DNA of 35,656 nucleotides from NCBI GenBank assembly GCA_964449065.1, contig CAYVAZ010000011.1:1-35656 (forward strand). Reading direction: 5' to 3'. This document shows positions 6,001 through 9,000 of the stretch, piece after piece. Made by a program: the position numbers. This stretch comes from an uncultured bacterium (GTDB taxonomy: Bacteria; Hinthialibacterota; Hinthialibacteria; Hinthialibacterales; Hinthialibacteraceae). The stretch's first letter is position 1, and the number at the start of each line of letters is the position of its first letter.

Positions 6001-9000
6001 AAGCATTACCCTTGTATAATCCTTACGGCTTTCTCTGAGAAAATATTCAAGATATTTATTTCTGCTTTTACTGCCAACAAGCAAAAACAGCATCATCTTT
6101 CAAAAGCAATCCATTATTCCATCTCTGGATTAACAGATTCCATTACCGGTTACTGAAAGAAAACGTATTTTTCAATCACTTCGATTCCCCTTTTTATTGC
6201 AAAGGCTAGAGCGGCGTTAAAAAGCAAGGCTCTATTAACGGAAGCCTAACATAAAATACTTATAGTTATTTACTGATGTTACGCAATTCATGATTGACGA
6301 TTGCTTGAAAAATGGGTTTTGTTGTGAGCCAACTATTCTAAGTCAAACGCAGTGTCTATCGTCTTCTCCCTTTGGGAGAAGATAAGAGATGAGGGCGAAG
6401 AGAGCGATGGCTCCCCATGACGCAGTAGCGTCATTAGAGGTTTATTCCTCCCGAACCCTCACCCCGTCCTTCTCCCGGTGGGCGAGAGTGATCAATTCAG
6501 CGAAGGATGAGAAAAACGGGCATATTATAATGTAGTGCGTAACGTGAGTAATTTATTCTCTCCAACAGTGATTGGGATAATGAAATGCGTGGATTTACGT
6601 TAATTGAGCTGTTAATAGTTGTCGCCATTATCGGGATATTGGCAGCGATTGCCGTACCCAATTTTGTCAACGCGCAAGTCAAAGCCAAGATCGCCCGTGT
6701 CGAAGCCGACTTCCAAGCCATTGCCACCGCGCAGGAAATATACCGGTTGGATAACAATTCCTTCACCATGCGAGGGCAAAGCGGTTTCAGAATGCTGCGC
6801 GAGCCGGTGGCATACATGAGCATCGAACCCATTGATCCGTTTACCGATGATGTGGTTGGCGGGGTTAGCTTTGGCGGCAACGTCATGAAAGGCCGGTATC
6901 AATTAGGTGCCGGGAACTCCAATCCGGAGAAATCTTTTGACTACACTCATCACGATATCTATCTTATCGCCAGTAACGGCCCTGACAAAGAAGATGATTC
7001 CCAACCCATTGGTTCCTGGCCGGTTTCACCGGTTACCAGATACATCGCTTTCGAAATTACCAATGGTCTCCACTCCAAAGGTGACCTTTGGCGATACGGC
7101 GGTCCCATCCCCGCGTACTTCAAAGAGCAAGTCCGATACGATTTTTAGTGATACCATTTTCAAATAGAAACGTTCACTATGAATGACGGAACGGCAAAAC
7201 GTCTTTTATGGTGGTGCAGGCTTCCAGCCAGCCGATGCTATTGTCTCCCCCAAAATGATTGGGGGAGATGTCCAACGTAAGGAGGACAGAGGGGGTGTGA
7301 AGAGAGCCATAATCCGTAAAGTATCAGGTCAGCTGTTTGAAGAGAGATTTCCCCTCCCAAGACTGGGTGGGGTTCGGGGAGGGTTGATTCGATTCTTTGA
7401 GAAAATGCCTTAACCCCCTCCTAACCTTCCCCATTGCATTGGGGGAGGGAAAAGTAAATCAAACCCATTTTTCCATTTCATACCGCTGACCGGTTACCCC
7501 CTGACATTTTCCTTGTGGCTTAACAATAAGATTTTTCTTCGGTTGACTTTTAATCGACTAGGGGTAAATTTAATTGAGTGAAAGGTGCGGTTATTTTTCC
7601 ATACGATATAACCGCCAAAAGGGAAGTCCGGTGAAAAACCGGCGCGGTCCCGCCACTGTAACTGGGAACGAAACCTCAAATGCCATTGTCCTTGTTGGAT
7701 GAGAAGGCGAGGGAGTAGGAGCGGTCGGTTAAAGAATTGAGTAAGTGCGGCGTAAAGCCCAGCGCGAGGAAGTGATAAGTCACTACACACTTCAATTCTT
7801 TGATCAAGTACCGTAAAAAATGCCCGGGAGCCAGGAGACCTGCCTTTCAATCAATCCAATATCGGCACGCCAACCGAGGAGAAGGCATTGCTATGCGCAA
7901 ATTTTGTTCTTGTACCACCCCGTCGGGCTTTTCACTAATTGAGCTCTTAATCGTCGTTTCGATTATCGGAATCCTAGCAGCCATTGTTTCCGCCAATTAT
8001 ATCTTTTCGATTGAACGCGCCCATGCGGCGGCGTGTCAACAAAATCTTAAGACCATCCATCAATCCCTGCTGTCCTACCGGGTTGACTACGGTCAATTTC
8101 CGCTCGCGGATTGCATGGCCGATACCCAACCGCGCTCCGATGTTACCGCCTGGGGCTGCGGCCCGGCCGCAAACGGCTACTGGTGCGGAGTTCCGCTTAT
8201 TTTAGCCGAACAGGGATACGCTCCGGAAAACGCGTTGTTTTGCCCCGCGTTAAAACATCAGCATAAACATTCGATTGAAGCCTATTCCGGATGCGGCGGT
8301 TCTTCATTTGCCGGTAAAGATGTCCCCGGCTGGCGATTCTTTCGCTATGCCTATAATAGCGCGGCGGCGGATACAGGCGGCTACGACGGCGGGCAGCATA
8401 ACATCGAAGACGATTGGGCGCCGGATGTTTGGCTGGCCCGCTGCGCCCATGTAGATGTCGGTGAGTTTTTCCCCGACCGTGATTTTACGTTTCCGCACCG
8501 GTTTGATATTGAAGATGAGGGTGAAGTCACAGCGTGGTATGGTGAGTTTGATTTATCCATTCATGGATCGATTCGGCAACGGTCGGTGCAATTGAAGAAA
8601 TTTTGAACAAATTAAATGTCGAACCTCTACCGTGAGCGTTGGGTGTAGGCCATCCGGGGGCCGTGCGGGCCGCCGTCTTTTTTCTCTTCATGGCCTTCTT
8701 TCTCTTCTTTCTTTTTGAGAGAGGATTCAAGAGTATCGACAATGCCTTCAAGAAATTCAATCATCTTATGAATGGCTTGCAGTTCCGAGCGTTTTTTTTC
8801 CAATTGCGATTTGAGTTCATCGAGTGCGTCGCCCACAATTTTCAGTTTTTCATTGCTGGTGATATCGGGAACCGAGATGCGGGTGCTGCGCAAAATATTA
8901 TAGGCTTTTTTGATGGCCGTGATCGTGGAAATTTTTGCCCGCGCTTTGATATCGCCAAAGTTTTCACGGATAAATTTTTGCGCATTGTTCGCGAAAGAGT

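Follow-up and report, generated by a model that had tools for sequence, protein, structure and literature searches.

Background

The described systems closest to the locus studied here are the E. coli-type BtuB-TonB receptor with its BtuFCD importer and the Bacteroides BtuG system; as far as the accessible part of PMC6143338 describes them, the locus resembles both in its riboswitch control, its BtuFCD-type importer and the presumably exported propeller of its regulon. BtuG is presented there as a surface lipoprotein encoded beside btuB and found only in Bacteroidota. The transcobalamin β fold, which recurs below, has also been proposed as a heme binder (bioRxiv 10.1101/864751, in the portion available). 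What many archaeal homologs of HmuS/CobN do is described as unclear in the available section of PMC12583661.

The cobalamin riboswitches and the leader of g00378

The window analysed, a stretch of 35,656 nucleotides of an uncultured bacterium of the Hinthialibacterales, carries a full-length cobalamin riboswitch aptamer on the forward strand at 7566..7861. The covariance model RF00174 was matched from position 1 to position 189 with 106.6 bits (E 6e-26), above the gathering cut-off of 31.5 bits and on the same strand as the downstream gene, in agreement with an earlier note on this DNA. The genome contains two further riboswitches, at C10:34864-35069 (106.1 bits) and at C387:2289-2501 (89 bits). 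The former precedes, as had been claimed, an operon of the propeller gene g00368 with cobO, cobQ, bluB, btuF, btuC and btuD, to which cobU, cobT and cobS can now be added.

The aptamer alignment reveals a 100-nt insertion in a peripheral arm (7724..7823, forward strand) that is predicted to form a long branched hairpin; it is missing from most relatives, whose RF00174 matches mostly span 170-240 nt. The fold of the whole leader was not significant (z -1.4). A sigma70-like promoter candidate just upstream of the riboswitch (7543..7570, forward strand) agrees with the consensus at 9 of 12 positions, but it is a weak one, since the region holds three sites of that quality and shuffled sequence a mean of 1.8.

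Downstream of the aptamer, a hairpin at 7869..7886 (forward strand) is kept across 17 aligned leaders. Its purine-rich loop (7876-7885), which ends 7 nt upstream of the ATG, is probably the ribosome-binding site. The kissing-loop role of such hairpins is established for the cobalamin riboswitch class, and by analogy the present hairpin is presumed to pair with aptamer loop L5 and to act as a translational OFF switch. The conservation of this hairpin points to ligand-dependent repression.

The prepilin-type protein g00378

The gene behind this riboswitch, g00378 (7893..8606, forward strand), encodes a prepilin-type protein of 237 residues with its ATG at 7893, identified from its open reading frame and prepilin motif; the earlier description of its size and prepilin signal was correct. 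It is monocistronic, the next gene converging at 8627. The protein is composed of a 12-residue leader, a G12|F13 cleavage site, E5, a 52-residue helix and a Cys/Trp-rich head. The class III signal peptide is recognized by PF07963 (28.4 bits, cut-off 21.2) and TIGR02532 (32.1 bits, cut-off 16.3), and the G|F-x-x-x-E motif is followed by a hydrophobic helix, which spans residues 3-54 in the AF2 model (pLDDT 87). The head of the model appears to have type IV pilin topology. Its best VIA matches are CofA (Z 6.1, rmsd 3.2 over 133 aligned residues), PilA4 (Z 5.8) and EpsG (Z 5.4), and nearly all of the top 24 rows are pilins, at Z-scores (best 6.1) within the range that common arrangements reach. 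Foldseek gave no PDB match at E <= 0.001, and no known ligand-binding fold, B12- or heme-binding folds included, was found for the head among the VIA matches listed.

The best family match is the GspG model TIGR01710, with 46.5 bits against a cut-off of 88.85 and over residues 11-71 only. Identification as the major pseudopilin GspG of a type II secretion system was therefore rejected, the gene also standing outside any gsp cluster; no model of a named pilin equivalog is matched above its cut-off. Membership of the DUF1559/H-X9-DG proteins was likewise rejected: PF07596 reaches 15.4 bits (cut-off 23.3), the C-terminal H-X9-DG motif is absent from the alignment on inspection, and no model of that motif was matched in a library that may not include one. 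The family is weakly matched by 29 of 33 members of the pilin subfamily at E <= 1 (best 2e-5). The subfamily alignment shows the cleavage site and E5 conserved throughout, and the invariant Trp, Cys and Gly residues are clustered in the head. A complex prediction for the g00368 propeller and the pilin head scored 0.00 (controls not folded).

At least 112 open reading frames with a prepilin motif occur among the approximately 4063 genes of the genome, and the probability of finding some pilin behind one of the three riboswitches by chance is roughly 8%. The single locus therefore proves little, and it is conservation across genomes that carries the claim.

Linkage of the pilin subfamily to cobalamin riboswitches

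The compared genomes are kin to one another and mostly incomplete; 63 riboswitch candidates were scored per genome. The pilin subfamily comprises 36 loci in 26 of the 26 genomes of the order, with 47-60% identity across the order. Once other orders are added, it is present in 34 of 35 genomes, and it is both more conserved and more widespread than any of its partners. Among the 28 pilin loci outside the CobN-type operons (see below), 17 lie directly downstream of a riboswitch, eight in a riboswitch-led operon and three at contig ends, such that all 25 scorable loci are riboswitch-led. Distant homologs from other orders were held out as a test of the linkage, and all eight proved to be riboswitch-led: seven directly, with 82-123 nt between the aptamer end and the cleavage site, and the remaining one in the arrangement riboswitch-propeller-pilin-btuDFC-like. 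Class-wide, the linkage thus holds at 33 of 33 scorable loci. In seven distant genomes the riboswitch is followed by the pilin only, and the tandem protein described below was not found there; the partners are therefore not obligatory.

The first genes behind 59 riboswitches encode the tandem protein (24), the pilin (17), BtuF (6), the propeller (4) and other proteins (4); two riboswitches had no evident first gene and the downstream sequence of two was not fetched, leaving 57 examined. The earlier note had proposed that the pilin and propeller orthologs are adjacent behind one riboswitch in relatives. This is the case in the three relatives that possess a g00368 ortholog, but most genomes use a paralogous propeller. 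The proposed role in B12 uptake is supported by the linkage at all 33 loci, while a fixed pair of the pilin with a g00368-type propeller is too narrow a definition, given the lone pilin in seven genomes.

The propeller, the tandem transcobalamin-fold protein and a shared tail

As had been suspected, the start of g00368 was called too early: the likely start is C10:34595, 53 codons downstream, yielding a protein of 452 residues. Direct orthologs occur in only 4 of the 26 genomes, and in most genomes a paralogous propeller, 22-31% identical to g00368, takes its place (relationships were taken from a quick tree). The copy of this near-universal paralog on C2 of the present genome lacks a riboswitch; of 28 loci of the paralog in all, 3 lack one and three more lie at contig ends. 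Seven blade-like repeats were counted by reading the alignment, five of them caught by a pattern, which makes the seven-bladed propeller a putative assignment from sequence. Family matches are weak and BNR_4-like, and the protein is presumably exported and has no lipobox on inspection. A profile of 38 propeller sequences searched against the PDB sequences yielded four matches at E <= 1, none of which was BtuG.

The third member of the regulon, and the commonest first gene behind the riboswitches (24/59), is a tandem transcobalamin-β-fold protein, encoded on C387 in the present genome and present in 24 of the 26 genomes of the order. Its AF2 model (pLDDT 91) matches the β domains of transcobalamin, intrinsic factor and haptocorrin with a Foldseek probability of 1.00; the matches at this probability are 5np4, 5no0, 3kq4, 4kki and 3u7z, the last with a TM-score of 0.81 by target length. 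Tandem ubiquitin-like proteins also score against the model, including rank 1 by E-value. At the level of sequence, identity with Pfam DUF4430 was rejected (none of 21 members at E <= 0.1), so that the likeness is one of fold only, and the match to SCO2322 is weak (E 2e-7, below cut-off). Atlas searches linked the protein to SCO2322 and DUF4430 clusters at 0.87-0.88; overall these searches gave leads only, with scores of 0.87-0.90 and low recognition values. Its profile found no match among PDB sequences.

The propeller and the tandem protein have in common a C-terminal V-x-x-W-x-x-Y tail, which occurs in about 69 proteins where about 7 would be expected by chance. Proteins with the tail are enriched next to pilin genes (12 of 69 adjoin one, compared to 31 of 731 controls), and 57 of the 69 do not adjoin one. 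The W-x-x-Y tail is a candidate sorting signal of this lineage.

Vitamin B12 requirement, receptors and pilus machinery

The genomes point to a need for B12 in cells that cannot make the corrin ring themselves: the corrin synthesis marker CbiC is present in none of the 26 genomes, and MetH exceeds its cut-off in 18 of them. No TonB-dependent receptor was found behind any of the 57 examined riboswitches. The BtuB model was above its cut-off in 0 of 35 genomes, a model that passes it in only one of the three control genomes that gave a signal. Weaker TonB-receptor matches occur in 15 of 26 genomes, and the present genome encodes six barrels of this type; no riboswitch was found upstream of such genes in 20 stretches covering 21 of the 46 matches. 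B12 could nevertheless be imported through an unregulated TonB receptor. The genome encodes seven secretins, 11 PilB/PilT-type ATPases (three of which exceed the PilT cut-off) and two prepilin peptidases (A24), together with the diderm markers Omp85 (one gene) and LPS genes.

A proposed role in corrinoid acquisition, and its alternatives

We propose, with a probability of roughly 0.6, that g00378 is an envelope component of corrinoid acquisition that stands in for BtuB. The proposal is based on the riboswitch linkage, the genes that share it, the modelled folds of pilin and tandem protein and the finding that no receptor is linked to a riboswitch; corrinoid binding, localisation and transport by the proteins of the module are what we infer. 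The linkage itself, the co-regulation with btuFCD and the transcobalamin-fold protein, the lack of a riboswitch-linked receptor and the lack of corrin synthesis together strengthen the B12-uptake reading, and g00378 is best read as forming the conserved core of an envelope module that is repressed by B12 and feeds BtuFCD and cobamide salvage. At low B12 the riboswitch would free the ribosome-binding site of g00378, whose product would be processed by prepilin peptidase and become a minor or tip subunit of a type IV or type II filament. The exported tandem protein and the propeller, both W-x-x-Y-tailed, may bind or hand over the corrinoid at the surface, the filament and its secretin would carry it to periplasmic BtuF, and BtuCD would import it for completion of the cobamide by CbiB, CobQ, CobU, CobT, CobS, BluB and CobO. 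That import proceeds by pilus retraction specifically is rather doubtful. A search of mostly open-access main texts retrieved no paper on a riboswitch-controlled pilin in B12 uptake.

The pilin might instead serve export alone, as a substrate-specific pseudopilin through which type II secretion exports or displays tail-bearing B12 binders, the vitamin entering otherwise (by an unregulated TonB receptor, a porin or the secretin pore). Such an adaptor would suit the tail, which resembles a sorting signal and is borne by about 69 exported proteins that are enriched beside pilin genes, as well as the GspG-like best match (albeit below cut-off), the seven secretins and the six TonB-receptor barrels. 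We nevertheless consider it unlikely, because the pilin is better conserved (47-60% identity) and more widely spread (34/35 genomes) than any partner, stands alone behind the riboswitch in seven genomes and bears the cluster of invariant Trp, Cys and Gly residues in its head. A protein that forms no filament, but is anchored in the inner membrane through the N-terminal helix while it binds or relays the corrinoid with BtuFCD in the periplasm, would be in keeping with the gene's absence from pilus-assembly clusters in all mapped neighbourhoods and with the gene order of G023, G024 and G025, where btuC-btuD directly follow the pilin with no btuF between, as well as that of G009, where btuF precedes it. 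Yet G024 and G025 do have a btuF gene, located in a different riboswitch-led operon. The conservation of the cleavage site and of E5 also speaks against such a binder, and since the Omp85 and LPS genes mark a diderm, the outer-membrane step would still need an explanation; we regard this reading as distinctly improbable.

Least probable by far is a function outside transport, such as an adhesin or contact pilus directed at B12 producers and induced by B12 starvation, or another B12-linked function, e.g., cobalt uptake. Riboswitches do control nrdD and methyltransferases here, and the link of the paralog described below to a metal regulator means that the head could recognize a metal or chelate and not the whole vitamin. 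The pilin, however, is co-transcribed with btuFCD, cobT and the transcobalamin-fold protein in independent arrangements, no cobalt-transporter family was found among 40 neighbours scanned, and free cobalt would be of little use since CbiC is absent.

The paralog operon on C31

A second pair, 53% (pilins) and 43% (propellers) identical to g00378 and g00368, heads an operon on C31 that also comprises ExbB-like, DUF2149 and CobN-like genes and lacks a riboswitch, as the earlier note had it. The note viewed the operon as a heme system in which the pair replaces HmuY and HmuR. In favour of iron-controlled heme uptake equivalent to hmuYRSTUV, the CobN-like protein finds its best PDB match in the heme dechelatase HmuS (E 5e-136) and keeps the position of the catalytic His538 (this His may be kept in other CobN/ChlH-type chelatases as well), and the counterparts of the ExbB-like and DUF2149 genes are hmuU and hmuV. 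The hemophore gene hmuY and receptor gene hmuR are absent from all eight paralog operons. Each of the eight bears a NikR-type palindrome at its promoter, an inverted repeat with a 13-nt spacer. Scored with the delta-proteobacterial consensus given in the available part of PMC545781, these loci reach 10-14 of 14 positions, compared to 7-9 at eight riboswitch-type leaders and a mean of 8.6 (maximum 11) in shuffled sequence. The Fur consensus upstream of the operons is at background (11-14 of 19 versus a shuffled mean of 11.4). Homologs of hmuS, hmuU and hmuV thus stand, but the palindrome together with the background Fur score suggests nickel scavenging and leaves the heme reading unsupported; the same palindrome also precedes sodN-sodX and DUF4198 genes, and we regard heme uptake as an unlikely function of the operon.

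The Zur consensus of Geobacter and the NikR consensus of E. coli gave background scores upstream of the paralog operons and were rejected. A Zur reading, prompted by a COG0523 GTPase and MerC divergent to one site, was also dropped, the site being ~40 nt from DUF4198 and ~470 nt from the GTPase gene. Matrix matches of 12-16 bits, among them those at a pilin/tail/DUF4198 operon of C208, do not exceed their frequency in shuffled sequence and were left out of the count. The nikR gene is found in 24 of the 26 genomes, lying on C59 and adjoining a NicO gene in the present one. Neither this genome nor G013, which likewise has the paralog operon, yielded a NiFe hydrogenase; LarA and NiSOD were found in the former. 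Judging from the operator sequences, control by NikR is probable, and nickel scavenging is the most likely function. The pilin/propeller pair would have been reused behind an operator of NikR type and alongside an HmuS-like dechelatase, the substrate being plausibly, if tentatively, a Ni-tetrapyrrole such as F430. No paper on a NikR-controlled CobN/ExbB/DUF2149 operon was retrieved among the mostly open-access main texts searched; supplementary regulon tables could list these genes.

More speculatively still, the approximately 110 pilin-like paralogs and the W-x-x-Y-tailed binders might form a general TonB-independent import platform that sets the nutrient specificity of a retractile type IV filament, with the B12-switched copy serving corrinoids and the NikR-controlled copy a Ni-tetrapyrrole such as methanogen coenzyme F430, whose nickel would be stripped by the HmuS-like enzyme; we think this improbable as a whole. 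The locus ties one strongly conserved pilin paralog to a defined ligand, and it touches on the B12 supply of diderms without BtuB and on the role of very large orphan pilin-like families. The small soluble proteins of the regulon can be assayed directly for cobalamin binding. In the paralog the scaffold is probably joined to another regulator, NikR, which raises the testable idea that nickel is recovered from tetrapyrroles.

Comparison with known systems

In contrast to the BtuB and BtuG systems, no TonB-dependent receptor lies behind the examined riboswitches, and the most conserved member is a prepilin-type protein; the propeller differs from BtuG in having no lipobox by inspection, no btuB neighbour and no BtuG chain among its PDB sequence matches. 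The tandem protein has the same fold as the β domain of transcobalamin, intrinsic factor and haptocorrin and as bacterial DUF4430/SCO2322-like proteins. It differs from them in its two β domains in tandem, the lack of an α domain, the W-x-x-Y tail at its end, the lack of a Pfam DUF4430 match and operons that include no ECF transporter. With type IV pilins and pseudopilins of type II secretion (PilA, CofA, GspG/EpsG), g00378 shares the leader, G|F site, E5, long helix and, as far as its model shows, a pilin-like head, but it is encoded outside assembly clusters, is one of more than 110 paralogs and lies behind a metabolite-sensing switch. None of the papers that the literature search reached describes vitamin import as a task of such pilins. 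The DUF1559/H-X9-DG prepilin-like proteins of Planctomycetota and relatives are alike in their large paralog expansion and weak DUF1559 match, whereas the present pilin is below the Pfam cut-off and its alignment lacks the H-X9-DG motif.

The paralog operon resembles the Bacteroidota hmuYRSTUV operon with its HmuS dechelatase in its HmuS-, HmuU- and HmuV-like genes, as far as the accessible parts of PMC12583661 and PMC11681262 describe it, but has the pilin and propeller instead of hmuY, hmuR and hmuT, and an operator of NikR type, not iron type. The NikR-type sites of the genome are like the delta-proteobacterial NikR regulon, as outlined in the portion of PMC545781 available, in the inverted repeat with 13-nt spacer, in the presence of nikR and in the DUF4198 and NiSOD targets, to which pilin and tail-protein modules and a CobN/HmuS-like enzyme are added here.

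The C11 locus and its pilin-like product

The earlier note placed a pilin-like gene under a cobalamin riboswitch, and both parts hold: a full-length riboswitch (7566-7861, plus strand; Rfam, 106.6 bits) precedes g00378 (7893-8606, plus strand), a 237-aa prepilin-type ORF with a prepilin leader and a G12|F13 site, which is monocistronic, its converging neighbour gene lying at 8627. A purine-rich hairpin directly 3' of the aptamer is kept across 17 aligned leaders, and its loop ends 7 nt 5' of the g00378 ATG. Kissing-loop translational repression is a mechanism of cobalamin riboswitches; by analogy, the hairpin position would fit such repression of g00378. 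The aptamer contains a 100-nt structured insertion (7724-7823), and among the listed relatives only G019 has a similarly long riboswitch (274 nt). A further pilin-like gene (6585-7148, plus strand) lies just 5' of the riboswitch; the stretch that separates it from the riboswitch promoter contains a GC-rich element, an imperfect palindrome (about 7340-7455), that resembles a dispersed intergenic repeat. The window also contains a tRNA gene (24407-24480).

The AF2 model of g00378 (pLDDT 87) shows a helix of 52 residues joined to a mixed head. Pilins come closest to it in structure, with modest Z scores (CofA 6.1, PilA4 5.8, EpsG 5.4). The protein falls below the cut-offs of the GspG and DUF1559 family models and lacks the H-X9-DG motif. 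Among 33 sequences compared, one Cys is invariant and five others recur in 29-32. The subfamily is narrow, since the head-domain profile found only 22 matches among 1.84 billion representatives; within the genome under study (G000) the head is common only to the paralog on contig C31.

Conservation of the riboswitch-pilin linkage

Because G000 encodes at least 112 prepilin-motif ORFs, a lone riboswitch-pilin pairing has about 8% odds of arising by chance. Across the order, the g00378 family is present in 26/26 genomes (36 loci, 47-60% identity). According to the gene maps, eight loci carry ExbB/DUF2149/CobN genes, form a single clade (100/100) and have no riboswitch; of the other 28, 17 lie directly 3' of a riboswitch, another 8 belong to an operon that begins with one, and the remaining 3 sit at contig ends. 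To test this on held-out data, the class was searched with a profile of the pilin head domain, which matched in 34 of 35 genomes. All eight short distant homologs outside the order have a same-strand upstream riboswitch (112-126 bits). Seven are directly riboswitch-led; at the eighth locus a propeller gene (E 2e-95 against the propeller profile) stands between the riboswitch and the pilin, and btuD/F/C-like genes, assigned from reading of the ORFs, come next. The link spans 26 genera and many gene orders, in genomes that are kin and not independent. Riboswitch regulation of the pilin is well supported as real; how the protein itself works we infer.

The cobalamin regulon and the C-terminal tail

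G000 has three cobalamin riboswitches: those on C11 and C10, as reported, and one on C387 that had been overlooked. The C10 operon has the claimed propeller (g00368), cobO, cobQ, bluB, btuF, btuC and btuD genes and also cobU, cobT and cobS; g00368 was indeed probably called too early, its likely start being 53 codons downstream. A tmRNA (L001:2843-3194) adjoins the operon's end, and a cbiB frame extends about 60 codons beyond its Pfam match into the riboswitch promoter and 5' part (L001:12973-13070; C10:34972-35069).

The first gene 3' of the order's 59 riboswitches encodes a tandem protein in 24 cases, the pilin in 17, btuF in 6, a propeller in 4, a methyltransferase-like protein in 2 (L083:899-1681 in G022; L068:1421-2215 in G003), and in one case each nrdD or an unknown protein with the tail described below, behind which the pilin lies; two riboswitches lack an evident same-strand downstream gene (L051, G003:C29; L076, G002:C8, the latter close to a metH fragment interrupted by an internal stop), and two are on short contigs whose first gene was not retrieved. 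At the nrdD locus (L065:5479-8294, G010), a radical SAM activase follows, together a B12-independent anaerobic ribonucleotide reductase. A riboswitch-led cob operon of G022 contains a downstream NifH/nitrogenase-component-1 fusion gene (L046:6692-8977).

The tandem protein, encoded 3' of the C387 riboswitch in G000, is exported and present in 24/26 genomes. It had no match in Pfam; with its AF2 model (pLDDT 91), Foldseek identified two transcobalamin beta domains; transcobalamin, intrinsic factor, haptocorrin and the bacterial 3u7z all match at probability 1.00, and tandem ubiquitin-like proteins score too. The predicted fold is no proof of ligand, since heme binding has been proposed, in a passage of bioRxiv 10.1101/864751, for a transcobalamin-like protein of Lactobacillus sakei.

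The propellers comprise three groups: the g00368 type (4 genomes), the paralog-operon type (8) and a third, 22-31% identical, at 28 loci, where it is riboswitch-led at 22, not at 3 (among them the G000 copy, on C2) and at a contig end at 3. Their alignment, read by eye, contains seven blade-like repeats; family matches are weak and BNR_4-like, and the PDB matches of the propeller profile include no BtuG chain.

The motif (S/T)-x-V-x-x-W-x-x-Y closes the propellers and most of the tandem proteins, a tail found on 69 of about 4063 G000 ORFs versus about 7 by chance and matched by no NCBIfam model. Tail genes adjoin a same-strand pilin in 12/69 cases versus 31/731 for signal-peptide-like controls (p 1e-4, with a crude control), and the majority of tail proteins are not adjacent to pilins. 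The tail, which on the 69 G000 ORFs, many of them for exported proteins, reads (S/T)-x-V-x-x-W-x-(L/V/I)-Y, may serve as a sorting or docking signal throughout the lineage. The window has a second pilin and tail pair, a CBM96-bearing tail protein (4511-5815) directly followed by a pilin-like gene (3836-4468), both on the minus strand.

Corrinoid requirement and uptake

CbiC/CobH was found in 0/26 genomes and MetH exceeds its cut-off in 18/26; corrinoid salvage is therefore obligatory. Two radical SAM genes not far from the g00378 locus (9699-11141 and 13771-15225, minus strand) have weak, below-cut-off B12-binding domain matches and are possible B12 consumers. G000 is diderm (Omp85 in the genome, LPS core genes in the window), and none of its six TonB-receptor barrels shares a contig with a riboswitch. 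The BtuB model's cut-off was exceeded in 0/35 genomes; it is strict, being passed by one of three control genomes. Because of this strictness, and of weaker TonB-receptor matches in 15/26 genomes, we scanned 20 stretches upstream of TonB-receptor-like genes (21/46 matches covered) and found no riboswitch. A receptor free of riboswitch control could also take up B12.

We favor, at a probability of roughly 0.6, the reading that the pilin-like protein replaces BtuB as an envelope component for the capture of corrinoids. It would act together with the exported binders, and the captured vitamin would pass to BtuFCD and the salvage enzymes. G000 has pilin assembly machinery (7 secretins, 11 assembly/retraction ATPases, 3 of them above the PilT cut-off, and 2 prepilin peptidases); import by filament retraction, the boldest form, is a tentative proposal that we consider doubtful. 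The pilin-like protein could instead be an export adaptor, which we hold to be unlikely. Less likely again is a periplasmic binder anchored in the inner membrane, and a role outside transport seems very improbable.

The paralogous operon

The C31 operon has the composition claimed (pilin, propeller, ExbB-like, DUF2149 and CobN-like genes, no riboswitch). Its likening to the hmu heme-uptake operon stands for three of its genes: in the PDB the CobN-like protein is nearest to HmuS, a heme dechelatase whose His538 position it retains, and a passage of PMC11681262 gives hmuU and hmuV as counterparts of the ExbB-like and DUF2149 genes. It is not supported at the level of control. All eight paralog operons have a NikR-type operator, an inverted repeat whose half-sites stand 13 nt apart, 3' of a conserved -35 box, agreeing with the NikR consensus (from a part of PMC545781) at 10-14/14 positions versus 8.6 in shuffles; Fur and Zur consensus agreement is at background level. 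A matrix built without the G000 site gave four matches above 20 bits in G000, where shuffles give 0-1. One is the C31 promoter and another (L002:11313-11339) lies within the C31 operon; the other two belong to a DUF4198 gene and to a tail protein. Like the second C31 site, similar sites in L093, L092, L090 and L045 lie inside the paralog operon, by the start or the end of its propeller gene.

Searching for the operator pattern gave 27 sites in 14/26 genomes, against 3 in the reversed control. Among 16 loci retrieved, 4 are the operons behind the pattern; the other 12 sites precede pilin or tail-protein genes (7), DUF4198 (2), sodN-sodX (1) and others (2). An operon that joins a pilin, a tail protein and DUF4198 (L115:5545-8140, G000:C208; L129, G014) has a strong NikR-type site in G014 and a weak one in G000. 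NikR is encoded in 24/26 genomes. One point counts against nickel control: in two of the eight genomes with the paralog operon, one being G000, no NiFe hydrogenase turned up, although G000 does encode LarA and NiSOD. A dechelatase under nickel repression would suggest a Ni-tetrapyrrole such as F430 as its substrate, which we propose only tentatively. In L045 (G022:C45), the B12 and NikR-type operons form a tandem, and two riboswitches lie back to back and point apart, possibly a trace of duplication.

Comparison with known systems

The riboswitch, BtuFCD, cobamide salvage, HmuS and NikR are already known. The homologs bear source names that indicate Ca. Hinthialibacterota/OLB16. For this phylum the consulted part of PMC9324843 names Tad pili and an ABC transporter for cobalamin and describes no B12-switched pilin module; in the literature, within a scope of main texts and few subscription journals, the combination of these parts was not found described. 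Added here are a separate pilin subfamily with a held-out test, a transcobalamin-fold partner, the tail signal, and an apparent switch from B12 to nickel control inside one pilin subfamily.
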